This document shows, one piece after another, positions 6,401 to 47,553 of a DNA stretch of 47,553 bases. The DNA is taken from IMG/VR virus record IMGVR_UViG_2939177367_000001. One strand, given 5' to 3'. The stretch is from a virus. Lineage: Duplodnaviria; Heunggongvirae; Uroviricota; Caudoviricetes. Both the position numbers and the translations under genes were made by a program. The notes under the pieces were generated by a model that searched no databases, was not told the DNA's origin, and worked only from the letters and a program-made list of their open reading frames with translations. Numbering within the stretch: the first letter of the stretch is position 1; each line of letters starts with the position of its first letter.

Positions 6401-6431
6401 CAGAACACTTTCAATTTTTAACCACAGAACG

Positions 6432-6995
6432 ATGAGGCTAATCGTGGGTAAGCATCACTGGAAAATAGAAAAACAGCCTGAGTGGTACGTGAAAGCTGTC
6501 AGAAAAACTATCGCGGCGTTGCCGGGTGGTTACGCTGAAGCGGCTGACTGGCTCGATGTAACAGAAAACGCTTTATTCAACCGCCTTCGTGCAGATGGCG
6601 ATCAGATTTTCCCGCTGGGATGGGCAATGGTTTTACAGCGTGCTGGTGGCACTCACTTCATTGCTGATGCTGTGGCGCAGTCTGCAAATGGCGTCTTTGT
6701 GTCTCTTCCTGACGTCGAGGATGTGGACAACGCCGATATCAACCAACGCCTGCTGGAGGTCATTGAACAGATCGGCAGTTATTCAAAACAGATTCGTTCA
6801 GCAATTGAAGACGGTGTAGTGGAACCGCATGAGAAGACAGCAATTAACGACGAGTTGTACCTCTCAATTTCGAAGCTGCAGGAGCATGCAGCACTGGTCT
6901 ACAAAATTTTTTGCATTTCAGAAAGTAATGACGCCCGCGAGTGTGCAGCTCCGGGCGCCGTGGCGTGTCGTGACTGTGGAGAAACTAACGCATGA
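6432..6995 (+). CDS. phage regulatory protein, possibly YdaT/CII-position family (187 aa)
   Basis: Gene immediately after the YdaS-like cro as in Rac ydaS-ydaT; family call is from synteny and weak recollection. Confidence 0.4.
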
Positions 6996-7350
6996 ACAGT
7001 TTAACAACACACTACCGTCGCTCGCAACTGATTGCGCTTCCTGTACCGGGTGGAAAAGCGAAGGTGGAGTATTGCTATGCAGTGAATGTACCAGGTGACA
7101 GGGAAATTGTAACCCACAGCTTTGCAGAGTGGGCTGTGGGGGATTTCAACCGGCAGAAGGAGGCAGTCCTTTGCGACAAGTTAACCGCTGGTTCAAAGAT
7201 CACTACGGAGTGCCCGTCAGAGTCATTCGTTGGGAGCCGGAAACACAACGGGTTATCTACCTCCGTGAAGGCTATGAGCATGAGTGCTTCAGCCCGCTCG
7301 AACAGTTTCGTCGTAAATTCAGGGAAATAGAGGTCGGTCATGAGCACTAA
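6992..7350 (+). pseudogene. hypothetical gene with apparent frameshift (two protein-like half ORFs in different frames)
   Basis: Frame-2 ORF 6992..7330 is protein-like only in its N-half; frame-1 ORF 7129..7350 only in its C-half; a G5 run at 7138-7142 lies at the junction and one added G joins them into about 119 aa. Confidence 0.4.
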
Positions 7351-8281
7351 ATTAACCGGCTATGTATGGGATGGTTGCGCAGCGTCAGGCATGAAATTAT
7401 CCAGCGTGGCAATTATGGCCCGCCTGGCTGATTTCAGTAATGACGAAGGTGTGTGCTGGCCATCAATTGAAACCATTGCCCGCCAGATTGGCGCGGGGAT
7501 GAGTACCGTCAGAACGGCTATCGCACGGCTGGAAGCAGAAGGCTGGTTAACGCGTAAGGCGCGTCGCCAGGGTAACCGCAATGCGTCGAATGTTTATCAG
7601 CTTAACGTTGCGAAGCTTCAGGCAGCGGCATTTTCTCAACTGTCAGATTCTGACCCGTCAAAATCTGACGTATCAAAATCTGACCCGTCAAAATTTGATG
7701 CGTCGAAATCTGGCAAAAAAGCGGGTTTTCACCCGTCAGAATCTGGCGGGGATCCGTCAGTAAAATCAAAACATGATCCGTCAGATAAAAAACCTTCTCG
7801 TCCGGACGCTTCGCAACCGGACACGCAGACGGCTGAACAGGATTTTTTAACTCGCCATCCTGATGCGGTTGTATTCAGCCCTAAAAAGCGCCAGTGGGGA
7901 ACGCAGGATGATTTGACCTGCGCACAGTGGCTCTGGAAAAAAATCATTGCCCTGTACGAGCAGGCCGCCGAATGTGACGGCGAGGTGGTTCGTCCCAAAG
8001 AACCGAACTGGACAGCATGGGCAAACGAAATTCGCCTGATGTGTGTGCAGGATGGTCGTACTCACAAACAAATCTGCGAGATGTACAGCCGCGTCAGCCG
8101 CGATCCGTTCTGGTGCCGTAACGTGCTCAGCCCGTCGAAGTTGCGGGAAAAATGGGATGAGCTTTCCCTGCGCTTATCGCCGTCCGTCAGCACGCACACA
8201 GAAAAACGTGAAGACCCGTACTTCAAAGCCAGTTACGACAACGTGGACTACAGCCAGATCCCGGCAGGATTCAGGGGGTGA
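7340..8281 (+). CDS. replication initiator, lambda O-like (313 aa)
   Basis: N-terminal wHTH typical of O-like initiators; iterons embedded in the coding sequence as in lambda ori. Confidence 0.7.
   Translation: MSTKLTGYVWDGCAASGMKLSSVAIMARLADFSNDEGVCWPSIETIARQIGAGMSTVRTAIARLEAEGWLTRKARRQGNRNASNVYQLNVAKLQAAAFSQLSDSDPSKSDVSKSDPSKFDASKSGKKAGFHPSESGGDPSVKSKHDPSDKKPSRPDASQPDTQTAEQDFLTRHPDAVVFSPKKRQWGTQDDLTCAQWLWKKIIALYEQAAECDGEVVRPKEPNWTAWANEIRLMCVQDGRTHKQICEMYSRVSRDPFWCRNVLSPSKLREKWDELSLRLSPSVSTHTEKREDPYFKASYDNVDYSQIPAGFRG
7641..7790. repeat. origin iterons (about 6-7 copies of an 18-bp CCGTCA(A/G)AATCTGA-type unit) inside the O-like gene
   Basis: Tandem units visible in DNA; encode the repeated DPSKSD/VSKSD peptide. 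Confidence 0.6.
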
Positions 8282-8283
8282 TC

Positions 8284-8772
8284 ATGAGTCTTTTGAATGA
8301 CGTTCAGAAATTCATTGAAGCCCATCCGGGCTGTACTTCCGGAGACATTGCAGATGCTTTTGCTGGTTACTCACGGCAGCGCGTTCTGCAGTCAGCAAGC
8401 AAGTTACGTCAGAGTGGGCGTGTGGCTCACCGTTGTGAAGGAGATACACGCAGACATTTCCCGCGCCTGACTGAGAGAGCGCAGGAGCCGGAACCACAAT
8501 CTGTTCGTGAAACCAGACCTGTGCGCAATTTCTATGTCGGCACTAACGATCCCCGGGTGATTTTGTGCCTGACCCGCCAGGCTGAAGAGCTGGAGTCCAG
8601 GGGCTTATACCGTCGTGCTGCAACGGTGTGGATGGCGGCATTCCGTGAAAGTCACTCCCAGCCAGAACGAAACAACTTTCTGGCGCGTCGAGAGCGGTGC
8701 TTACGGAAAAGCAGCAAGCGCGCTGTATCGGGTGATGAATGGTATCTGTCAGGGAATTACGTGGGGGCTTAA
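8284..8772 (+). CDS. hypothetical protein with PerC-like C-terminal motif (about 162 aa)
   Basis: Motif GLYRRAATVWMAAF...RRERC resembles the PerC/Pch regulator signature (from memory). Confidence 0.4.
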   Translation: MSLLNDVQKFIEAHPGCTSGDIADAFAGYSRQRVLQSASKLRQSGRVAHRCEGDTRRHFPRLTERAQEPEPQSVRETRPVRNFYVGTNDPRVILCLTRQAEELESRGLYRRAATVWMAAFRESHSQPERNNFLARRERCLRKSSKRAVSGDEWYLSGNYVGA

Positions 8773-9098
8773 TGACGACGTTAACTCAGTGTCAGCAGCA
8801 GGTGCTGGATATGCTGATTTCTTATCAGAAAGAACGTGGCTTCCCGCCAACCAATCAGGAGGTGGCAACCATGCTGGGATACCGTTCAGTGAATGCAGCG
8901 GTGGAGCATCTTCGCGCACTGGAGAAAAAAGGCGTCATCACGATAAAGCGTGGCGTGGCCCGGGGCATCACGCTTCATACCGCGGTGAAGGACGACGACA
9001 GCGAGGCGGTCGGGATTATCCGCTCACTGCTTGCCGGTGAGGAAAACGCAAGGCTGCGTGCAACCCACTGGTTACATGAGAGGGGCCTGAAAGTATGA
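8772..9098 (+). CDS. LexA N-terminal DNA-binding domain paralogue lacking peptidase domain (108 aa)
   Basis: LTQCQQQVLDMLISYQKERGFPPTNQEVATMLGYRSVNAAVEHLRALEKKGVI aligns by eye to LexA residues about 1-70; no S24 domain follows. Confidence 0.65.
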   Translation: MTTLTQCQQQVLDMLISYQKERGFPPTNQEVATMLGYRSVNAAVEHLRALEKKGVITIKRGVARGITLHTAVKDDDSEAVGIIRSLLAGEENARLRATHWLHERGLKV

Positions 9099-11323: not shown

Positions 11324-12076
11324 ATGAACCTTGAAGCCTTACCGAAATATTACTCCCCAAAATCTCCAAAATTGAGCGATGACGCACCGGCGACAGGCTC
11401 TGGTGGTTTAACAATTACGGATGTGATGGCTGCGCAGGGGATGGTGCAGTCGAAAGCACCGCTTGGGTTTGCCTTATTCCTGGCAAAAGTTGGTGTTCAG
11501 GATCCTCAGTTTGCGATTGAAGGTCTGCTCAATTACGCGATGGCACTGGATAACCCGACATTGAATAAATTGAGTGAAGAAACCCGGCTACAGATTATTC
11601 CTTACCTTGTGAATTTTGCCTTTGCTGATTATTCCAGGTCTGCGGCAAGTAAGGCTCGCTGTGAGCATTGTGCTGGTACTGGATTTCATAATGTATTGCG
11701 CGAAGTGGTGAAACACTCCAGAAGCGGGGAATCTGTTATCAAGGAAGAGTGGGTGAAGGAACTATGTCAGCATTGTCATGGTAAGGGAGAAGTCAGCACA
11801 GCGTGCAGAGGGTGTAAGGGTAAAGGTATTGTCCTGGATGAAAAAAGGACCCGGCTTCATGGCACGCCTGTTTATAAGATTTGTGGGCGTTGCAATGGAA
11901 ATCGGTTTAGCCGTTTACCGACCACACTGGCGCGGCATCATGTCCAGAATCTGGTAACAGACCTGACGGATTATCAGTGGTACAAAGGATATGCAGACGT
12001 CATTGATAAACTGGTTACAAAGTGCTGGCAGGAAGAAGCATATGCTGAAGCGCAATTGAGAAAAGTGACAAGATAA
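11324..12076 (+). CDS. Q: late-gene antiterminator Q (250 aa)
   Basis: CxxC...CxxC zinc-binding core (CEHCAGTG, CQHCHGKG, CRGCKGKG) and position before the lysis cassette; GGAG RBS. Confidence 0.75.
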   Translation: MNLEALPKYYSPKSPKLSDDAPATGSGGLTITDVMAAQGMVQSKAPLGFALFLAKVGVQDPQFAIEGLLNYAMALDNPTLNKLSEETRLQIIPYLVNFAFADYSRSAASKARCEHCAGTGFHNVLREVVKHSRSGESVIKEEWVKELCQHCHGKGEVSTACRGCKGKGIVLDEKRTRLHGTPVYKICGRCNGNRFSRLPTTLARHHVQNLVTDLTDYQWYKGYADVIDKLVTKCWQEEAYAEAQLRKVTR

Positions 12077-12182
12077 ATGATTTTCACCAAAGATAGCGAC
12101 ATGATGCTTGCATTTTTCAAAAAACATGGATAAGATTTTCTCAACGATGGGCTTTGTATGTCTACCGTTGATAAGTCCAAAA

Positions 12183-12213
12183 AACCGCAGCCGAGCGGGT
12201 TAAATTATTTTTT
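12183..12213 (+). terminator. late-promoter-proximal hairpin plus T-run (tR'-like)
   Basis: AACCGCAGCCGAGCGGGTT imperfect stem followed by a T-rich tract, downstream of Q. Confidence 0.3.
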
Positions 12214-12230
12214 CTTACACGGGGATATGG

Positions 12231-12761
12231 ATGTTATACCGAGATCTTCTGCCTATTTTCTCAGAAAGAACCATATTTGAAGCTCCTGAGGCTGAAAGAA
12301 TACTTCGTGAGCAATATTCTATCATTGCCCCCTCTCCTGTAATTCAGGAGATTTATTATGGATTGGTAGGCGATGACAGATTTCAGAAGCTTTATGGGGA
12401 TCTTGATATTGACCAAATTGAATGGAAATTGATTGAACTTCCCACTAAAAACTTTTTAACTATCGGGGATAATGCTACTTGCCCTGATTTTTTGCATGAG
12501 GTCGTTGAAGATTACATGACCCGTAAAGGTGATGTATTTATGGATGATGAAATAAAAGCGCATTGGTGTAATTTTGGCACATGGTGCGAACCACCATTTT
12601 TTATAGATCGAGCTTTGCTGAAAAGTAATACAACAGGGCTCCATTTAATGGAAGGGCATACAAGAGTTGGAACCCTGTTAGGGGCAGTTAAGTATAACTT
12701 CGTTAAGCTTGCTAATACTCATAAAATTTATTATGCGCAAGCAAAAGAATGTATTAAATAA
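12231..12761 (+). CDS. hypothetical moron protein (176 aa), AT-rich
   Basis: Long ORF in AT-rich DNA between Q and the lysis genes; followed by a strong terminator. Confidence 0.55.
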   Translation: MLYRDLLPIFSERTIFEAPEAERILREQYSIIAPSPVIQEIYYGLVGDDRFQKLYGDLDIDQIEWKLIELPTKNFLTIGDNATCPDFLHEVVEDYMTRKGDVFMDDEIKAHWCNFGTWCEPPFFIDRALLKSNTTGLHLMEGHTRVGTLLGAVKYNFVKLANTHKIYYAQAKECIK

Positions 12762-12798
12762 GTTGAGTGAAATTACTGTTGGTTTTTTAACAATACTT

Positions 12799-12820
12799 AC
12801 CGCGTTCTCGCGGTTTTTTT
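12799..12820 (+). terminator. rho-independent terminator
   Basis: CCGCG-TTCT-CGCGG hairpin followed by T7. Confidence 0.55.
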
Positions 12821-12918
12821 ATAAATTAAACATTGGTGCAGTACGGTAAACACGCTGGTGGTCGTGAATACTGACTGTTTATCTTGCTGGCTTTTTAGAC
12901 AAGAGTTATTGGTATGTC

Positions 12919-13137
12919 ATGTTAACCAGAAGGGAAAAAGACATGCTAAAACAGCAAGATATGACAGAAACGGCGAAAGTTGTTTTTAATGAATTAAGCA
13001 TCGAACCGGCAACAGTCGGGGAGATTGCACAAAACACATACCTTTCACGCGAACGCTGTCAGTTAATACTGACCCAGCTGGTTATGGCGGGGCTGGCAGA
13101 TTACCAGTTCGGCTGTTACAGACGCCTTCAGCAATGA
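12919..13137 (+). CDS. small putative winged-helix DNA-binding protein (72 aa)
   Basis: Short ORF upstream of the methyltransferase; wHTH-like segment ATVGEIAQNTYLSRERCQLILTQL. Confidence 0.4.
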   Translation: MLTRREKDMLKQQDMTETAKVVFNELSIEPATVGEIAQNTYLSRERCQLILTQLVMAGLADYQFGCYRRLQQ

Positions 13138-13286
13138 AGGGCTTTTAATTTGTGAAAATGGGCGGCTGGTGGGTGTTGGTAGCACCTGCCAGCCATTCGC
13201 TCATGCTTACTGGTCACAAGCGAACCACGGCCCACTGCTTTAGCGCAAAAGCAGAGTGAGCCTACCAGAGTTACGCTTACTGATCC

Positions 13287-14339
13287 ATGAAAAATACTGT
13301 AAAAATAAACAGTGTTGATTTAATCAACGCTGATTGCCTGCATTTTATTCAGTCCCTGCCTGATGATTCCATTGACCTGATTGTTACCGATCCGCCGTAC
13401 TTCAAGGTGAAACCCAACGGCTGGGACAATCAGTGGAAAGGGGACGAAGATTACCTTAAGTGGCTGGACCACTGTCTGGCCCAGTTCTGGCGGGTGTTAA
13501 AGCCTGCCGGAAGCCTTTACCTGTTCTGTGGGCATCGCCTGGCATCTGATATTGAGATCATGATGCGTGAACGTTTCAACGTGCTTAACCATATCATCTG
13601 GGCGAAGCCGTCCGGACGTTGGAATGGGTGTAATAAAGAAAGTCTGCGCGCATATTTTCCTGCCACAGAGCGCGTTCTGTTTGCTGAACATTACCAGGGG
13701 CCATATCGCGGCAAAAGTGACGGCTATGCGGCAAAAGAAAGGGAACTCAAACAGCACATAATGGCACCGCTGATATCGTATTTCAGGGATGCTCGTGCCG
13801 AACTGGGTATAACGGCAAAACAAATTGCCGAAGCCACAGGTAAGAAAAATATGGTTTCCCACTGGTTTGGTGCCAGTCAGTGGCAGTTGCCGAATGAGGC
13901 TGACTATCGGAAGTTACAGGCACTGTTTTCCCGTATAGCGGCAGAGAAGTTTCAGGAACAACAACTGGAACAACCACACCACCAGCTGGTGGCATCTTAT
14001 GATTCACTGAATCGCAAATATTCTGAATTGCTGGATGAGTTTAAATCTCTCCGGCGCTATTTCTCCGTATCAGTCTCCGTGCCTTATACCGATGTCTGGA
14101 TGCATAAACCCGTTCAGTTCTACCCGGGTAAACATCCGTGTGAGAAACCTGCGGATATGCTCCGGCAAATAATCAATGCCAGTAGTCGACCTGGTGATCT
14201 GGTTGCTGATTTTTTTATGGGATCCGGTTCCACAATAAAAGCAGCAATGGCGCTGGGGCGTCGGGCCTTAGGTGTTGAGCTTGAGTCAGAGCGGTTTAAC
14301 CAGACAGTGAAAGAGATAAACGAGCTGGTGGGGAAATAA
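13287..14339 (+). CDS. DNA methyltransferase, DPPY motif (N6-adenine/N4-cytosine class), orphan (350 aa)
   Basis: Catalytic motif IV DLIVTDPPYF near N-terminus, C-terminal AdoMet-binding FFMGSGST; no cognate endonuclease adjacent. Confidence 0.8.
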   Translation: MKNTVKINSVDLINADCLHFIQSLPDDSIDLIVTDPPYFKVKPNGWDNQWKGDEDYLKWLDHCLAQFWRVLKPAGSLYLFCGHRLASDIEIMMRERFNVLNHIIWAKPSGRWNGCNKESLRAYFPATERVLFAEHYQGPYRGKSDGYAAKERELKQHIMAPLISYFRDARAELGITAKQIAEATGKKNMVSHWFGASQWQLPNEADYRKLQALFSRIAAEKFQEQQLEQPHHQLVASYDSLNRKYSELLDEFKSLRRYFSVSVSVPYTDVWMHKPVQFYPGKHPCEKPADMLRQIINASSRPGDLVADFFMGSGSTIKAAMALGRRALGVELESERFNQTVKEINELVGK

Positions 14340-14343
14340 TCTG

Positions 14344-14366
14344 GTGGCCACGTAGGTGGCCTTTTT
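14344..14366 (+). terminator. hairpin plus T-run upstream of holin
   Basis: GGCCAC-GTAG-GTGGCC stem followed by TTTTTA. Confidence 0.45.
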
Positions 14367-14405
14367 ATTTCCATTACACAGCACCCGCATCTGCGAGGTG
14401 GGGTT

Positions 14406-14621
14406 ATGAAATCCATGGATAAGTTAACAACGGGTGTCGCCTATGGCACCTCAGCAGGTAGTGCCGGGTACTGGTTTTTACAGTTGCTCGATAAAGTCAC
14501 GCCCTCACAGTGGGCGGCAATAGGTGTGCTGGGTAGTCTGGTATTTGGCTTGCTGACGTATCTGACAAACCTTTATTTCAAGATTAAAGAAGACAAGCGT
14601 AAGGCTGCACGGGGAGAGTAA
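14406..14621 (+). CDS. S: pinholin, phage 21 S21-like (71 aa) with dual-start motif
   Basis: MKSMDK dual Met start and sequence match recalled S21 pinholin. Confidence 0.85.
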
Positions 14622-14625
14622 TTCA

Positions 14626-14970
14626 ATGACTCAAAAATATGAACTGATTGTGAAAGGGATCCGCAATTTTGAGAATAAAGTTACGGTAACTTTAGCGTTA
14701 CGGGACAAAGAACGCTTTGACGGTGAAATTTTTGACCTGGACATCTCGCTGGACCGTGTTGAAGGTGCCGCGCTGGAGTTTTATGAGGCAGCAGCCAGAA
14801 GGAGCATCAGACAGGTCTTCCTGGATGTTGCTGCCGGGTTATGTGAAGGGGATGAGCTGTCGCCGGAAAAGCGCCCCATAATTTTAGAGGCGCAGAATGT
14901 GTGGATAACCTACAAAGGAAAGCTACCGGGAAGAATTACTGGTTCTCTGAAGACTCCGCCGAAATGGTAA
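14626..14970 (+). CDS. hypothetical protein (114 aa) inserted between holin and endolysin
   Basis: ORF with RBS directly after the holin stop; not part of canonical phage-21 lysis cassettes. Confidence 0.45.
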   Translation: MTQKYELIVKGIRNFENKVTVTLALRDKERFDGEIFDLDISLDRVEGAALEFYEAAARRSIRQVFLDVAAGLCEGDELSPEKRPIILEAQNVWITYKGKLPGRITGSLKTPPKW

Positions 14971-15856: not shown

Positions 15857-16053
15857 AAATTAATCCGGATCTTATAGGCGTTGTCGTTATTGCTGGCCTT
15901 TCGGTCGCTCTCGTCAAGAGTTGCTCTCACGCCAGTAATCTTCAGAGCGATAACGACGTTCTGCGAAGTGACAACTCTATGCTGGGGCAGGTAATCGCCA
16001 CCCAGGCATTCAACTTCAATCGATTCAATCAGGTTGCAGAACATGCCAACTGA
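15853..16053 (+). pseudogene. Rz: Rz (i-spanin) N-terminal fragment, truncated by IS insertion; C-terminal remainder in frame at 17364..17702
   Basis: Start overlaps endolysin stop (ATGA); TM segment LIGVVVIAGLSVALV; stop codon is supplied by the first three bases of the IS; reading frame resumes after the IS and the AAC duplication. Confidence 0.7.
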
Positions 16054-16104
16054 ACCGCCCCGGGAATCCTGGAGACTAAACTTCCTGAGAAAGAGGTAAA
16101 CAGG

Positions 16105-16431
16105 ATGACTAAAAATACTCGTTTTTCCCCCGAAGTCCGTCAACGGGCAGTCCGTATGGTTCTGGAAAGTCAGAGCGAATATGACTCACAATGGGCGACA
16201 ATTTGTTCCATTGCTCCAAAGATTGGCTGTACGCCGGAGACTCTGCGTGTCTGGGTTCGCCAGCATGAGCGGGATACCGGGGGCGGTGATGGAGGGCTCA
16301 CCACCGCTGAACGTCAGCGTCTGAAAGAGCTGGAACGTGAAAATCGTGAACTGCGCCGCAGTAACGATATCCTTCGCCAGGCTTCCGCTTATTTTGCGAA
16401 GGCGGAGTTCGACCGCCTCTGGAAAAAATGA
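16105..16431 (+). CDS. IS629-like transposase OrfA (108 aa)
   Basis: HTH plus leucine-zipper protein matching recalled IS629 OrfA. Confidence 0.9.
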
Positions 16432-17318
16432 TGCCACTGCTGGATAAGCTGCGTGAGCAGTACGGGGTCGGACCGCTATGCAGCGAACTGCATATTGCCC
16501 CGTCAACGTATTACCACTGTCAGCAACAGCGACATCATCCGGATAAACGCAGTGCCCGTGCGCAGCGCGATGACTGGCTGAAGAAAGAGATACAGCGCGT
16601 ATACGATGAAAATCACAAGGTATACGGTGTGCGTAAAGTCTGGCGTCAGTTGTTACGGGAAGGTATCAGAGTGGCCAGATGCACTGTGGCACGTCTCATG
16701 GCGGTTATGGGACTTGCCGGTGTTCTCCGGGGTAAAAAGGTCCGTACGACCATCAGCCGGAAAGCCGTTGCCGCAGGCGACCGCGTAAACCGTCAGTTCG
16801 TGGCAGAACGACCTGACCAGCTGTGGGTGGCTGATTTTACTTACGTCAGCACATGGCGGGGCTTCGTCTATGTGGCGTTCATCATTGATGTGTTTGCCGG
16901 ATACATCGTGGGGTGGCGGGTCTCATCGTCCATGGAAACGACATTCGTGCTGGATGCACTGGAGCAGGCGTTATGGGCCCGTCGACCGTCCGGCACGGTC
17001 CATCACAGTGATAAAGGTTCTCAGTATGTATCGCTGGCCTACACACAGCGGCTTAAGGAAGCCGGATTACTGGCATCAACAGGAAGTACAGGCGACTCGT
17101 ATGACAACGCGATGGCGGAGAGCATCAATGGTCTTTACAAAGCGGAGGTAATACACCGTAAGAGCTGGAAAAACCGTGCAGAAGTGGAACTGGCCACACT
17201 CACGTGGGTGGACTGGTATAACAATCGACGATTGCTGGAAAGGCTGGGCCATACTCCTCCGGCAGAAGCAGAAAAAGCTTATTATGCTTCCATCGGAAAC
17301 GATGATCTGGCAGCCTGA
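16428..17318 (+). CDS. IS629-like transposase OrfB (DDE integrase core, 296 aa)
   Basis: DDE catalytic region (WVADFTY..., HSDKGSQY, ...[11 protein letters not shown]); overlaps orfA in the -1 frame across an A6 run, consistent with IS3-family frameshifting. Confidence 0.9.
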
Positions 17319-17430
17319 GTTCACAGATAAAACACTCTCCAGGAAACCCGGGGCGGTTCAAACAGTCTTAACTCCCTGATCGACACCAGCACCGAAAAAA
17401 CCGTAATCGAATACCGGGAGATTCTCCGCC

Positions 17431-42156: not shown

Positions 42157-43238
42157 ATTCGTAATGATTACCTAAATACGTTATTCTTTTGTTCAAAAAG
42201 TGATTTTGCTATAGGTAGGGAGTATGTTCTTGGATTAAGAATAAAAAATCGCCATGAAAGAGCTTCATGGCGAGTACATAAACGTACAAAATGTGATGAA
42301 AGTAGAGTGGCGTAAGCCACTATATTAAGATATGACAATAGCGAAGAAAAGTAAATAACATTTTATGGACGTTTAATTTTTAATTATAAAAACTAGAGTG
42401 CCCGATATTGTTTATCTTGCTTTAAAATAATGTACTCAAACCAAATTTTTGAGCTAAAAGCTCAAATAATATAAATGCAATAATAATGTTTAATAAGACA
42501 ATTAGCTTGCTTTGTATTTTCATTTCGGAATACTGTTAAGTAACTTTGATGACCCTAACAATAGATCGGAATTTTCTTAGAGTCAATGGTCACTGTTTTT
42601 GCTTGCAAAGCAAATGTTTTGGTGGTTATAAGTTGTCTTAATATAGTCACGCATGCAACTTGTTCCATGCGGAGATTAAAGATTGGAATATAACGCGAAG
42701 ATGGAATTAAATTACATTTGCAATAATCAATTTATTATTACTCAATAATTACCGATATTATTATTGTAAATTAATCATTAGAGTGCAAAAAGAAATGTAA
42801 CGGCAAAATAAGAGGACGATAGCTGAGAAAAAAGCGTGCTTTCCCAATCTGGGGCAAATCACGTCTGAATGACACCTGAAAACAGGTGGTAGCCTCAAGA
42901 AGGCTTGGAATATTCTTCTTTAATGTTATGTAATTCATTGATTTTTCGTGTACGATTTTAAGACATTTATTCCAAGAAAAATTTTTAACTCTTTGATTTT
43001 TCGACTCTGTATCATCGGTCTCGAAAACCGTAGACACATAGTATGCGTTAATTTATGAACAAACTACTTGTCTGCTGTTTTTCTGTCATTAGTCGTATAT
43101 AGAATGATTCTCTATGCCTAACAAAGCATCACCAGTGCTAGATTACGTTGTAGTCACTGTTTAAATATCCAGATAAAACATTTCCTTCTGGGTTGAATGA
43201 GTGATAAAGTTTCACCCATTAGACCCCTTGGAGGAATT

Positions 43239-44672
43239 ATGTCTGAATTTGAAGTGTTGGCACAGCATCTGCTGAAGGAAGCCGAGGCGGAAGAAAAGCT
43301 GCGACAGGAAAATGATAAAAAGCTTATCGAGAAAGTGCTGGAAATCTATGATCAGAAGTATGTGGCTGAATTACTGAGAAAAGTCGGAAAAAATGAGTGG
43401 AGCCGTGAAACCATTAACCGCTGGATTAATGGCAAGTGTTTACCAAAATCGTTGACTTCAGTAGAAGAGTCTCTTCTGCGTAAGATGCTACCAGAACCAC
43501 CTGCAAACCATCCGGAATATGCTTTCCGCTTCATTGACTTATTTGCTGGAATTGGAGGGATACGGAAAGGTTTTGAGGCCATTGGAGGCCAGTGTGTTTT
43601 TACCAGTGAATGGAATAAAGATGCTGTGCGTACATACAAGGCCAACTGGTTTAACGATGAACAGGTGCATAAATTCAATCTCGATATTCGGGAAGTCACG
43701 CTGAGTGATAAAACCGATGTATTGGAAACGGATGCTTATGCATATATTGATGAGCATGTGCCGGATCATGATGTGCTTCTTGCGGGGTTCCCGTGCCAGC
43801 CATTTAGCCTTGCTGGTGTTAGTAAGAAAAACTCACTTGGTCGTGCGCATGGTTTTGAATGTGAAGCACAAGGAACACTTTTTTTTGACGTGGCACGTAT
43901 TATACGAGCAAAAAAACCGGCAATTTTTGTGCTGGAAAATGTCAAAAATCTGAAGAGCCATGATAAGGGTAAAACTTTCAAAGTCATTATGGAGACCCTT
44001 GACGAGCTGGGCTACGAAGTTGCCGATGCTGCAGAAATGGGAAAAAACGATCCAAAGATTATCGATGGGAAGCATTTTTTGCCTCAGCATCGTGAACGCA
44101 TTGTTCTGGTCGGATTTAGACGAGATCTGAATATTCACAAGGGGTTTACCTTGCGTGATATCAGTCGTTTTTATCCGGAACACCGCCCATCATTTGGTGA
44201 ATTGCTGGAGCCTGTAGTCGACAGTAAATATATACTTACGCCAAAACTATGGGAGTACCTTTATAACTACGCCAAAAAGCATGCAGCCAAGGGGAATGGT
44301 TTTGGCTTTGGGTTGGTCAATCCTGAGAATAAGGAAAGCATTGCACGCACACTTTCTGCCAGATATCACAAAGACGGATCAGAAATTCTTATTGATCGTG
44401 GTTGGGATATGGCAACGGGAGAGGCTGACTTTATGAATGAGAGTAATCAGGCTCGTCGACCACGCAGGCTGACTCCCCGAGAGTGCGCACGCCTTATGGG
44501 ATTTGAAAAACCTGGAGGGAAACCATTCCGTATTCCGGTTTCAGATACTCAGTCATATCGGCAGTTCGGTAACTCAGTTGTGGTGCCAGTATTTGAAGCT
44601 GTTGCCAGACTTCTGGAACCCTATATCCTCAAAGCTGTTTCTGCTGATGCTGGTAAGACTGGGCAGCCTTGA
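43239..44672 (+). CDS. ecoRIIM: DNA cytosine-5 methyltransferase, M.EcoRII/Dcm-like (477 aa)
   Basis: Motifs [10 protein letters not shown] (AdoMet binding), GFPCQPFS (catalytic PC), ENV, QFGNSV; GGAGG RBS before MSEFEVLAQ; length equals M.EcoRII. Confidence 0.9.
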
Positions 44673-44678
44673 GAACAT

Positions 44679-44701
44679 CTCCCGGCCTTTTAAGCCGGGA
44701 G
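44679..44701. terminator. bidirectional hairpin between convergent M and R genes
   Basis: CTCCCGGC-loop-GCCGGGAG 8-bp stem located between the two stops. Confidence 0.5.
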
Positions 44702-44706
44702 TCAGC

Positions 44707-45915
44707 CTATGATAGTTCAGCGTAAAGCTCTATCAGCTCAGTAATGAATGCTCCGAGCGTTATTAATTCTTCTCTAACTGCTTCTGGGTATTTTTTATGT
44801 AAAGTTGATGGTACAACGAGTCTGACACCCGCATCTTTCATTTCTCGGTATTGTGCTGAAGAAACACCTTCTTGCAGTGTAAATAAATGTACCTGATGGA
44901 TTTTATCTGCTTCATTCAGTATCTGACGCCAGCGATCTTTGCAGGTGGTCTTTACTGCCAGCATACGTAAGTTTTCTACAGGAAATTCAACGTTATGATA
45001 TGCCTCTGCTGAAGGAAACAGGAAATCTGGTTTTTTATTACCTTCAGTAACTGCCTGAGTGGAGAAATGCCGTAGTCCGTGCTCGATAAAAAGCTTCTCT
45101 AGGTGAAGTTCAAGTGATTTGCCTGCCCTTGATTTACGTCGATTACTGACAGAGTTGGCTAATGCAATAAACTCATCTACAGAATCGAATCCTTTCTTAA
45201 TAATATCAAGAACATGTAATTCCTCGACGAGTAGAAAAATATCATACTCGACACGCCGACGGTCAATCAGTTGCTCATCTGGATCCTTGGAGTTTTTAGC
45301 ATAATGGCCAGCAGCATATTGAATAATTTCGTTTCCAGAAGGAAAACGCTTCTTCCAGTCTTCAGGAATAACATATTTATGATTTACTGGAGTTTGCTGA
45401 AGAGACAATCCGCCCAAAATTTGTCCGGCAGGGCCGGAAATTAGGGTTCCAGGTATGATTTCGCCAATAGCAGACTCGATGATATCCTCTTCATCGGGAT
45501 TGACGCAGACCCATATATCTACCTCGGAACAGTCAGTGTTCTGTTCGTTTAACCTGAAAGCAAGAATTGTGAGGGCTCCTGTATTTTCAGGGTTCTGTAA
45601 TGGACTTCCTCTCCCCCAGCGCGTAATTCTTTTTTCGTTTCGGGTCTTACCAAAATAACGGTTGTTGTAATAAATTGCGCGTGCTTGGGTATCAGGGCAA
45701 TCATGGGATGATACATGCGCAGTAAGGAAGACTGAAGGGTTCAGTTCGCGAGTATGATTGATAGATGGAAAAAGCTTTTCAACGATATTTGAGGGGATAT
45801 AAAGTCCGACCTGATGGCCACCTGTTGCGCCTGTGTCGTTTGCAGAAAGGCGTTTGATGTAGATAAAGTAATTCCCGCTTGCGATATCAAGCAGCCAGTT
45901 ATGAAAAACCGACAT
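44707..45915 (-). CDS. ecoRIIR: type IIE restriction endonuclease, EcoRII-like (about 402 aa)
   Basis: Translation MSVFHNWLL...YIKRLSANDTGATGGHQVGLYIP matches recalled R.EcoRII; convergent with its methyltransferase. Confidence 0.85.
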   Translation of the reverse strand: MSVFHNWLLDIASGNYFIYIKRLSANDTGATGGHQVGLYIPSNIVEKLFPSINHTRELNPSVFLTAHVSSHDCPDTQARAIYYNNRYFGKTRNEKRITRWGRGSPLQNPENTGALTILAFRLNEQNTDCSEVDIWVCVNPDEEDIIESAIGEIIPGTLISGPAGQILGGLSLQQTPVNHKYVIPEDWKKRFPSGNEIIQYAAGHYAKNSKDPDEQLIDRRRVEYDIFLLVEELHVLDIIKKGFDSVDEFIALANSVSNRRKSRAGKSLELHLEKLFIEHGLRHFSTQAVTEGNKKPDFLFPSAEAYHNVEFPVENLRMLAVKTTCKDRWRQILNEADKIHQVHLFTLQEGVSSAQYREMKDAGVRLVVPSTLHKKYPEAVREELITLGAFITELIELYAELS

Positions 45916-46000
45916 ATACATCCCTTTGTTAACATACAGTCAGGGTTAACATTTTTCCATAGTTATAGATAAGCGGCTAGGAACTTAAGGGAAAAACAAA

Positions 46001-46020
46001 AAGCCCGCATAAGCGGGCTT
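46001..46020. terminator. symmetric hairpin flanked by A-run and T-run (bidirectional terminator-like)
   Basis: AAGCCCGC-ATAA-GCGGGCTT with A and T tracts on either side. Confidence 0.45.
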
Positions 46021-46587
46021 TTGTGTCACTCGAGAGCCGCGGCTCCTTTGCGTATCCTTTTTTGTCTCCTCACCGTCTGGTCGGTGTCCTGCTAAGACTG
46101 CTAACTTCCTGTTTTTGTTGGTGTTGTCCTTACACCGTCCAATCATGATTGGTGGGCTGGCGGGAGTTGAAACCGCAGCCACGTCGTATGCAAGAACGTG
46201 CTGCGGTTGGCTGGTGAACTTCCGATAGTGCGAGTATTGAATGATTTCCAACTGTTATCGATTTTGCGTATTTTTTGCATGAGAGGATTTTTACCTCCTC
46301 CCGCCGATCCTCCATGGCTTTACGCCTGTGTCTCTGGTCTGCTCTGTGCCAATTGCAGACGTTGTTGCACTGCAAAAATATCTTGTCCGGATCAAGGTAT
46401 CGCCACCACTTGTTAGGTGGATTAATCCGTATTTATAACAAATACAATTCCCGGCTGTACCTATAAGCTGTTGTCAGTTATACAAAAGCGATGTAGTGTT
46501 CCACACATTAAATTTACAAACGTGGAAAAGTCCGTGTTTAGATACAGATTTTTCCGCTGAATAACCGCATATTTCCAAAGGTTTATC

Positions 46588-47553
46588 ATGAGTAAGTGGC
46601 TATTAGACAGGCTATTTGAAGCCGGTGATCAGGCAGAGCCCCGGTTTGCGTTTCAGGGGACTGTAAATTGGATGAGGGCCCTTGCCGAAGTCGTTAACGG
46701 TGGCGCTTGTGCCGATGATAAACTAAATGATTTATATGCTCGGGTACAACGTAGACCTGTCAATCGTGAAGCTGATACGCTTGTGTTTGAGAACACAATG
46801 ATGGCCTTACATAATCTGTCATCTTTGAAAAGTATGAATAAAGATGTCGAAGATAAATATGACATATGTCGTTCAGCTATTATTTCTTGGTATTACAGTA
46901 TCTATTTTTCCGCTAGCGCGATGGTTGCAGCATCTTCTGGTTCTATTCAAGAGACACATACAGCCACAGCAAAAGTTTGGCAGTCAGATATCGCGGAAAA
47001 AGAACTTATCCCATATCCATTTAATCTTCTTCTAACTAGTTTAGTTTCAAACACTGCTGATGCCGAGATTGCTGCATATAGAGGTGCTAACCGTTTCGAC
47101 CTGAATAATAGAGCTTATGATAATGAAACTGCTCATGGTGCACTGGTTTCCTATCTAAAGGGGACTCATGGCTACAAAAAGTGGGAAACAGAAGAGAGGG
47201 TGAGAACTTCTCGTGATTTCAAAGCTCTTGGTGTTGACAACTTTCGCACGAAAGCTGCTCGCGAAGTTCGCGATCACGCACTAGAAAAAGGACAAGTTAA
47301 TTTCCTTATTCAGGCATTTAGATACCGTGGTAAAGCGAACTATCGTGACTCTATATTTTTATCCTACGGTGACAACAACGAAGCTATTATAGAAGAATTT
47401 ATCCAAGATTTGTATGATGTCGCTATTGGCTTCATTAGGGCTACTTCGCATTATTGCAGTCGAAGAGTCGAGAGAGGTACGTGGGCTGAGTTTGTCGAGG
47501 ATATTTCTGATAACTCAAGGTTGTCTATTGACTCTGTCGTGCTTGAAATATAA
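46588..47553 (+). CDS. hypothetical protein (321 aa), unknown function
   Basis: Complete ORF ending at the last base of the window; protein-like composition; preceded by a 660-bp intergenic region with promoter-like AT-rich DNA. Confidence 0.6.
   Translation: MSKWLLDRLFEAGDQAEPRFAFQGTVNWMRALAEVVNGGACADDKLNDLYARVQRRPVNREADTLVFENTMMALHNLSSLKSMNKDVEDKYDICRSAIISWYYSIYFSASAMVAASSGSIQETHTATAKVWQSDIAEKELIPYPFNLLLTSLVSNTADAEIAAYRGANRFDLNNRAYDNETAHGALVSYLKGTHGYKKWETEERVRTSRDFKALGVDNFRTKAAREVRDHALEKGQVNFLIQAFRYRGKANYRDSIFLSYGDNNEAIIEEFIQDLYDVAIGFIRATSHYCSRRVERGTWAEFVEDISDNSRLSIDSVVLEI

Follow-up and report, generated by a model that had tools for sequence, protein, structure and literature searches.

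An Escherichia coli lambdoid prophage (IMG/VR record IMGVR_UViG_2939177367_000001; 47,553 nucleotides, hereafter the window) carries three open reading frames (ORFs), all on the + strand, between the gene for antiterminator Q and the holin gene. Our best overall explanation, which we consider probable, is that they represent two independent pieces of cargo lying just past the pR'-tR' module, that is, the late promoter and the terminator that follows it. One piece would be a widespread methyltransferase cassette that opens with a terminator, in many cases includes a small winged-helix gene, and goes on to a structured leader RNA of ~120 nt, an M.EcoGII-family enzyme and a closing terminator. 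The other is an AT-rich gene encoding a 176-residue protein. The methyltransferase enzyme is known; the RNA motif and the family of the 176-residue protein are new.

The ORFs (176, 72 and 350 residues; Table 1) were delimited correctly in a preliminary description of this DNA, and RefSeq gives the same three genes in 100%-identical prophages, except that the small gene starts at 12943. The 3.7 kb from Q to ydfR match the chromosomal sequence of a porcine enterotoxigenic E. coli (ETEC) strain at 100% identity. Of 5426 complete E. coli genomes, the denominator for all E. coli occurrence counts given below, 5202 contain parts of this interval. Downstream of the block, Pfam identifies a phage-21-type holin, YdfR and a lysozyme. 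That the genes are cargo in the Q-to-lysis slot, as originally proposed, agrees with O157 prophages, which hold the small gene, the methyltransferase gene and tRNAs there. Their placement in the late-operon leader stands in part: the slot is the right one, but the genes lie downstream of pR' and tR', in the 5' part of the late operon and not in its untranslated leader. The view of a single three-gene block does not agree with the unequal occurrence of its members: the methyltransferase gene is present in 1265 genomes (23%), the small-gene region in 2182 and the 176-residue gene in 89, and a Salmonella homologue of the 176-residue protein has no methyltransferase with it. The preliminary description was silent on the structured leader and on a decayed tR', to which we turn below.

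In an alignment of the window with mEp460, an O157 prophage, IHE3034 and a Hafnia prophage, running from the cargo terminator to the methyltransferase start, the small gene is less conserved in its coding sequence than the 150 nt that separate it from the methyltransferase gene. We collected 80 diverse methyltransferase loci from IMG/VR (72-81% identity to the ancestral sequence Anc284), which yielded 61 distinct leaders, 40 of them long-form. Helices P1-P5 were set by inspection and then counted on the 40 long-form leaders, with the 3' partners slid by 1-3 columns as a control. Standard pairs occupied 82.4% of cells, compared to 33-45% in the slid controls; 17 pairs were altered on both sides (5-10 in controls), and 105 cells carried a compensatory change (18-48 in controls). 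None of 500 shuffles matched the observed pairing, both-sided changes or covariation score. Covariation was present in P2, P3, P4 and P5, with up to three Watson-Crick types at one pair (alignment columns 63-89: CG 16, UA 10, AU 9; columns 30-56: UA 32, AU 4, GC 4), and the frequent G-U pairs fit the mRNA strand only. The window leader itself has a minimum free energy (MFE) of -56.9 kcal/mol (z -3.5).

A covariance model of the leader matched 68 of the 80 diverse loci, in every case on the + strand and abutting the methyltransferase ATG, as well as all E. coli and Hafnia loci. No other match at E <= 0.001 was found in ~725 kb, where weak reverse-strand matches to the P2 hairpin had E values of 0.3-0.8, and there was none in the Salmonella prophage that has no methyltransferase. 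Rfam 15 gave no match at E<=1 on either strand of positions 11900-14700, and a tRNA scan of the block was negative. No purine-rich Shine-Dalgarno sequence precedes the methyltransferase ATG in the window or in the aligned leaders. The start reads GAUC(Y)AUG, in which GAT and ATG are nearly invariant across all leaders; a GATC (Dam site) falls at window positions 13283-13289, directly before the start codon. Helix covariation and the fixed position before the ATG point to a structured cis-regulatory RNA that would take the place of a normal ribosome-binding site and, most likely, gate translation of a toxic enzyme. Both the leader RNA and the regulatory anatomy of the cassette (terminators plus leader) appear to be undescribed: the motif has no Rfam family, and the papers retrieved in a literature search mention neither.

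Could the conserved 150 nt act instead at the DNA level, either as a recombination junction or as an operator bound by the winged-helix protein, or reflect no more than recent common descent? The interval directly follows the gene of a putative DNA-binding protein, the leaders fall into few clades with P1 and several other stretches invariant, and both strands fold well, all of which would fit such an explanation. We nevertheless judge it improbable. Recent descent or DNA binding does not account for compensatory changes on both sides of the 17 pairs or for several Watson-Crick types at the same pair, and the G-U pairs would be A-C mismatches on the opposite strand. The leader is also better conserved than the adjacent coding sequence. 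Furthermore, the small winged-helix gene was detectable upstream in 47 of 74 loci, and the other 27 keep the leader, which argues that the leader belongs to the enzyme and not to the winged-helix gene. The same 27 loci weaken the idea, which we had considered, that the winged-helix protein binds the leader.

Some features of the data count against a functional RNA with exactly this structure. The helices were derived from the same sequences on which they were counted, these sequences come from few clades, and P1, being invariant, is uninformative. RNAalifold and single-sequence MFE folding favour a partly different 5' topology, with an AUGGG-CUCAU pairing in place of P1 and P3. We did not adopt this topology, given that P3 is better supported by compensatory pairs 63-89 and 66-86, and regard it as a possible alternative fold; leader columns 66 and 68 vary compatibly with both folds, which leaves room for a fold switch. 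An all-pairs scan of column covariation in the leaders was too noisy to use, owing to the clade structure. A short-form leader lies ~160 nt upstream of the methyltransferase gene in seven loci (L122, L124, L127, L128, L130, L131 and L136); it has a P2-like hairpin and part of P3, lacks P4 and P5, and may be a second variant of the motif. The covariance model matched four of these weakly (L122, L124, L130 and L136; E ~0.01-0.04) and gave no match at E <= 1 in L127, L128 and L131.

Like riboswitches, ribosomal-protein leaders and the control regions of C-protein-regulated restriction-modification systems, the element is a conserved multi-helix 5' leader that abuts the start of a gene expected to be harmful if unregulated, and it may have two alternative folds. 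It differs from known cis-regulatory leaders in matching no Rfam family. Classical restriction-modification control works through a C-protein on DNA, whereas this leader persists in loci without the small winged-helix gene. The leader would thus be a new RNA motif in a large share of enterobacterial prophages, and a leader that has no ribosome-binding site and sits between terminators in a Q-dependent operon offers a concrete, testable control mechanism.

The enzyme downstream of the leader is, by sequence, a member of the characterised M.EcoGI/GII family of non-specific adenine methyltransferases. Its match to Pfam N6_N4_Mtase (PF01555) spans residues 29-341 (E 2.2e-42), and the order of its motifs is that of the beta class: DPPY occupies residues 35-38 and FMGSGST lies near residue 310. 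It shares 80.5% identity with M.EcoGII over the full length, 89% with Anc291 and 70% with Anc284/SUPREM, values computed from sequences machine-read from the supplement of PMC11551740; these sequences may contain a few misreadings. M.EcoGII itself modifies adenine whatever the sequence context, its constitutive expression is deleterious, and it is unexpressed in its lysogen (PMC5778455). Anc291 is experimentally non-site-specific and the ancestors retain non-site-specific activity; the nearest site-specific relative, M.PflMI, is just 27% identical to M.EcoGII (PMC11551740). The preliminary description had treated the enzyme as an unassigned orphan with a target motif to be found; given its membership in a non-specific family, there should be no such motif. 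Its orphan status itself was confirmed: the gene is flanked by the small gene and the holin gene, no endonuclease gene is present in the block, and the only PADLOC matches there are the methyltransferase's own (MTase_II, oMTase and MTase_III models), with no endonuclease or other defence match.

Compared with M.EcoGII and M.EcoGI, from a prophage of E. coli O104:H4 C227-11 (Murray et al. 2018), the window enzyme has the same length, beta-class architecture and lambdoid prophage origin, and any-context adenine methylation and silence in the lysogen would be expected of it. About 19% of residues differ from M.EcoGII, and the window allele is known from sequence alone. The published work on M.EcoGII describes neither a location close to Q nor terminators on both sides nor a structured leader.

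The arrangement of terminators suggests how the cassette may be controlled. Terminators precede and follow the small gene and a further one follows the methyltransferase gene (Table 1), and its transcription should therefore need Q-modified RNA polymerase. Transcription of the cassette would then be confined to lytic growth, when such polymerase passes the terminators; these would keep the enzyme, which is toxic, off in the lysogen. Once made, the enzyme would methylate adenines in the DNA of progeny phages largely or wholly regardless of sequence, and thereby confer broad protection from restriction in the next host. The preliminary description had also suggested an epigenetic action in the lysogen. 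Host expression is indeed altered by some prophage methyltransferases, M.EcoGIII among them (cited in PMC6602927). However, M.EcoGI, M.EcoGII and their homologues are silent in O104:H4, O111 and ST131 lysogens (PMC5778455, PMC6602927, PMC4659465), with no methylation signal for the homologue in O111 Shiga toxin-producing E. coli and no transcript in ST131 strain EC958 (PMC6602927, PMC4659465). With constitutive expression deleterious, and with three terminators upstream of the gene as well as a leader that has no Shine-Dalgarno sequence, we consider an epigenetic effect on host gene expression very improbable, and favour an enzyme that is non-specific and off in the lysogen. M.EcoGII is in wide use as a reagent, both in chromatin and RNA footprinting and for getting past restriction barriers, and how a phage controls this toxic, sequence-blind activity has so far not been described.

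Between the two larger genes, the small gene most likely encodes 64 residues and not 72, the latter being the longest ORF only: an AAGGGA ribosome-binding site accompanies the start at 12943, and the majority of homologues have 63-64 residues. Its earlier designation as a putative DNA-binding protein of 72 residues therefore needs a change of length; the function remains plausible, as a winged-helix protein. Pfam matches fall below their cut-offs (DprA_WH, 17.2 bits against 22.9, E 0.005; TrmB, 16.4 bits against 25.6, E 0.008). The 329 homologue clusters are all enterobacterial, many are named TrmB-family by NCBI, and some carry a precomputed PF17782 match. The gene region is very common in enterobacterial prophages.

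The second piece of cargo begins almost immediately after the promoter module. In mEp460, Ayreon and IHE3034, all with the same Q, the 155 nt that follow it are conserved; they hold a pR'-like site and a hairpin. The pR'-like site scores under the threshold of a consensus promoter scanner, and we assign it as the putative pR' from its position and conservation. In mEp460 the hairpin is a canonical terminator, with a 10-bp stem followed by U7 (-14.1 kcal/mol, z -3.5), and the Ayreon annotation has a terminator at the equivalent position. The window stem is reduced to 4 bp (-6.8 kcal/mol, z -0.48). In all examined carriers of the 176-residue gene, homology ends exactly at the tR' U-tract, which is changed to UUAAAUUAUUUUUU.

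The ATG of the gene, at 12231, comes just 17 nt after the tR' remnant, which leaves no room for a promoter of its own, and neither a promoter scan nor reading of the sequence found a promoter-like site for it. The junction of the AT-rich insertion appears to have removed the tR' U-tract, and for this reason the gene is probably transcribed from pR' without Q. It may, in other words, be readable from pR' across a disabled tR', with the transcript ending at the gene's own strong terminator (12814), which would shield the genes downstream. That terminator (-9.7 kcal/mol, z -3.65) had been recognized in the preliminary description, as had the AT-richness of the gene (GC 0.36-0.39, compared to ~0.50 in the flanks). 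Two considerations weigh against this picture of expression: read-through of tR' is a prediction from sequence and folding energies, and in Hafnia the gap between Q and the gene is just 35 nt, so the promoter arrangement there differs.

The insertion resembles the morons of lambdoid phages (bor, lom, stx; the Hendrix/Juhala concept) in having a deviant base composition (GC 0.37 against 0.50), in being absent from otherwise identical phages, in lying between modules and in having its own terminator. Among IMG/VR loci with the same Q and pR', 18 have nothing in the slot, nine carry unrelated mEp460 gp51-type cargo there and two carry the 176-residue gene. It differs from lambdoid morons in having no space for its own promoter. 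The moron concept thus seems to apply with a twist, namely that pR' would be borrowed by destroying the tR' U-tract, and the junction suggests a simple route by which a late-operon slot could become a lysogen-expressed one.

The 176-residue protein had been called unrecognisable, and our searches bear this out for named families. Direct homologues are few and enterobacterial, and the gene is always single-copy and chromosomal in the 89 E. coli genomes that carry it, with only one phage record. A profile search of 1.84 billion representatives recovered 295 relatives, 141 of them below 1e-10 and mostly 165-185 residues long. Neither the protein nor 119 family members match any Pfam or NCBIfam model, and PHROGs gave a single unannotated PHROG; none of the 119 matches a ParB-type Pfam model at E<=1, and their profile finds no PDB sequence at E<=10. 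PADLOC 2.0 had no match for the protein or six longer relatives. We also looked for a match to a known nin-region protein and found none.

The predicted structure was more informative. A first model from 11 sequences was poor (predicted local distance difference test score, pLDDT, 64) and was replaced by one from the 119 sequences (pLDDT 93.6). In the latter, the C-terminal ~75 residues superpose on the ParB/Srx fold, and the matches include the ParB/Srx heads of the type IV enzymes BrxU, GmrSD and SspE. A Foldseek search of the PDB with the model gave no significant match, and neither did hhalign comparisons of the family profile with one GmrSD_N protein (probability 0.6%) and with an approximate human sulfiredoxin sequence. 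Residues E141-G142-H143-T144-R145 are invariant or nearly so in the 119 sequences and lie where strand 137-141 ends and helix 143-155 begins; P34, W112, W118 and R145 are invariant in the family. On the predicted structure, the protein is a new family within the known ParB/Srx fold, with no detectable similarity to that fold at the level of sequence profiles.

We compared it with PadC, the pNOB8 ParB N-domain, sulfiredoxin, the SbnI/SerK kinases, the DUF262 heads of BrxU, GmrSD and SspE, DndB and Osa. The EGHTR sequence corresponds to an acidic-Gly-x-x-Arg box at the strand-to-helix junction, where those proteins bind a nucleotide phosphate; the corresponding boxes read DGQQR, DGQHR, GGCHR and GERR. 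Unlike them, the 176-residue protein has no helix-turn-helix, nuclease or dimerisation domain, stands alone in a family of 165-185 residues, and has a unique helical N-terminal domain of ~100 residues with conserved P34, Y55 and W65 (W112 and W118 are also conserved). The product would thus be a small cytosolic protein with a predicted ParB/sulfiredoxin-type nucleotide- or phosphate-binding domain.

Genes of this family come first after three different types of Q, in E. coli, in Hafnia and in a Salmonella Gifsy-2-like element; the E. coli and Hafnia genes adjoin the methyltransferase, and the Salmonella homologue follows Q with no methyltransferase. In the Salmonella ZC-S1 prophage (L029, 5709-6395), the Q-to-holin slot with the 174-residue homologue also carries a gene for a PipA/GogA-family effector protease, which indicates that this slot collects virulence cargo in Salmonella.

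We also sampled the neighbourhoods of 20 distant homologues (25-45% identity). Seven of the 20 lie beside genes for restriction-modification, bacteriophage exclusion (BREX), GmrSD, STAND or Abi functions: the neighbours include BREX PglZ/BrxL, type I hsdM/hsdS, SWI2/SNF2 helicases (one family gene lies 20 nt upstream of its helicase), HsdR with GmrSD, a STAND NTPase and, on a phage contig, Abi_C. In a metagenome-assembled genome (L009, 2340-9893), a tight five-gene operon encodes an MmeI-like type IIG enzyme, a 177-residue family member, a 426-residue protein, a DEAD/ResIII helicase and a T5orf172 protein, and the stop of the MmeI-like gene abuts the start of the family member; together these genes may form a multi-gene defence system that has not been described before and in which the family member has a part. 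Integrases, transposases, MobA, a DUF5906 primase-like gene and terminase contexts were also found near distant homologues. On these small numbers, the pattern is the signature of cargo of defence islands or mobile elements. Limiting this view, the association with defence islands comes from 7 of 20 loci, and an all-against-all BLAST of 107 neighbours from 19 of the 20 (L010 was left out, its target ORF being unassigned) found no conserved partner gene.

A family carried by mobile elements and defence islands may have a modulating, nucleotide-dependent role in DNA-directed conflict, be it restriction, BREX-type immunity or the evasion of either, rather than that of a nuclease. We regard counter-defence and defence as about equally likely roles and hold each tentatively. 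As a counter-defence (anti-restriction or anti-BREX) factor, the protein would be made early in the late phase and guard replicating or newly injected phage DNA. This would suit the family's presence on mobile elements, prophages included (in the context of terminase, MobA/transposase and integrase genes), the position of the gene immediately after Q and, in E. coli and Hafnia, its place beside an anti-restriction methyltransferase. It sits less well with several chromosomal members that are co-oriented and tightly packed with restriction genes, as in the MmeI-like abutment and the gene 20 nt before a SWI2/SNF2 helicase, an arrangement unusual for an inhibitor. The protein is also only mildly acidic (pI ~5, net charge -8), and on this charge we rejected the idea of an Ocr/ArdA-like DNA mimic.

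As a defence or superinfection-exclusion factor, the protein would be expressed in the lysogen, read from a constitutive pR' through the decayed tR'. The exact replacement of the tR' U-tract at the cargo junction, the further weakening of the stem in the window and the strong terminator that insulates the genes downstream all agree with this role, as do the relatives in defence islands next to BREX, HsdR, GmrSD, STAND NTPase and Abi genes and the ParB/Srx heads of BrxU, GmrSD and SspE among the fold matches. On the other hand, 176 residues hold no effector domain (nuclease, pore or toxin), PADLOC gives no match, and there is no conserved partner gene.

Many phage and plasmid N6/N4 methyltransferases bear an N-terminal ParB domain, and the 176-residue protein could accordingly be a ParB-like subunit that has become detached from the methyltransferase next to it and serves that enzyme as an accessory. 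Its ParB/Srx-like fold and its adjacency to the enzyme in E. coli and Hafnia are in keeping with this, and distant relatives adjoin methyltransferase-containing enzymes (MmeI-like and HsdM). We consider it unlikely, since the methyltransferase gene is far more widespread (1265 genomes against 89), no methyltransferase lies near the Salmonella homologue, the two genes have a terminator between them, and M.EcoGII shows full activity by itself in vitro (PMC5778455). The family, which has ~295 representatives and no Pfam model, can reasonably be put forward as a candidate new component in the conflict between phage and host.

Taken to their fullest extent, the two halves of this analysis lead to a joint proposal. 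A new class of leader would replace the ribosome-binding site of M.EcoGII-family genes and act as a switch between two folds that licenses translation in lytic growth only, maybe by sensing the enzyme, which also binds and methylates RNA; at the same time, a new ParB/Srx-like family would modulate restriction or BREX-type immunity and be expressed in this lysogen through pR' and a destroyed tR'. That every part of this proposal is correct together is possible, though doubtful.

Table 1. Features of the Q-to-holin interval, in window coordinates
Feature	Position	Strand	Basis and remarks
Antiterminator Q (YdfT/PF03589 type)	11324..12076	+	Pfam Antiterm 4.3e-53, phrog_127; PGAP start 11324
Putative pR'-like late promoter	12108..12136	+	TTGCAT, 17-nt spacer, TAAGAT, read from sequence; invariant in mEp460, Ayreon, IHE3034
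Decayed tR' terminator	12185..12213	+	4-bp stem, interrupted U-tract UUAAAUUAUUUUUU; homology with mEp460 and Ayreon stops exactly at U-tract
176-residue cargo gene	12231..12761	+	Predicted N-terminal helical domain and C-terminal ParB/Srx-like domain with E141-G-H-T-R145 box
Intrinsic terminator closing the 176-residue gene	12799..12821	+	ACCGCG-TTCT-CGCGGT + T7 (stem 12799-12814); -9.7 kcal/mol, z -3.65
Small putative winged-helix protein, 64 residues	12943..13137	+	phrog_331 (unknown function) 5e-35; PGAP start 12943; longest ORF 12919-13137, 72 residues
Terminator-like hairpin, end of small gene	13125..13150	+	Stem 13125-13140; O157 version with canonical U-run
Conserved structured leader RNA of the methyltransferase	13159..13279	+	Alignments, covariation, covariance model
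Leader P1	5' arm 13159-63, 3' arm 13230-34	+	
Leader P2	5' arm 13164-75, 3' arm 13183-94	+	
Leader P3	5' arm 13196-205, 3' arm 13215-24	+	
Leader P4	5' arm 13235-41, 3' arm 13248-54	+	
Leader P5	5' arm 13257-61, 3' arm 13275-79	+	
M.EcoGII-family beta-class N6-adenine DNA methyltransferase, 350 residues	13287..14339	+	80.5% identity to M.EcoGII; PF01555
Intrinsic terminator, methyltransferase to holin	14346..14366	+	GGCCAC-GTAG-GTGGCC + T5 (stem 14346-14361), -12.3 kcal/mol; annotated in Ayreon
Holin (phage 21 S type)	14406..14621	+	PF04971 2e-35

The methyltransferase cassette has a different setting in O157 prophages (L028, 3025-4704, from O157:H7 strain FRIK2533), where the small gene, leader and methyltransferase gene follow a gene for a DUF1133 protein, itself after RusA; the DUF1133 gene occupies the position of Q in the window. 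The genes for tRNA-Ile and tRNA-Arg come next, at the position of the stx genes in Stx phages.

Elsewhere in the window, a second methyltransferase gene lies in the early nin-like region (~8122-8775) and is annotated in the homologous EC21Z-144 prophage, to which window positions 6416-8775 align at 97% identity, as 'phage N-6-adenine-methyltransferase'. The prophage therefore appears to encode two such enzymes, one early and Dam-like and one late and non-specific. The right end of the window (42821-47553) is 99.96% identical to a region of the EC21Z-144 host that is annotated with a DNA cytosine methyltransferase and a type II restriction endonuclease, a complete restriction-modification system just outside the prophage.

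Downstream of the lysozyme gene, a 1.3-kb insertion (16051-17360) distinguishes the window from the otherwise 99.98%-identical ETEC4090 prophage. It holds overlapping ORFs (16105-16431 and 16428-17318) that resemble an IS3-family transposase pair, and it interrupts the ORF after the lysozyme gene, which encodes a hypothetical protein in ETEC4090 and is by position a candidate Rz-type lysis gene. Because the insertion sits in this putative Rz-type ORF, the prophage may be lysis-defective. Finally, a tRNA-Thr (CGU) gene at 1369-1444 is the likely attachment site of the prophage, as its EC21Z-144 counterpart adjoins an integrase gene.

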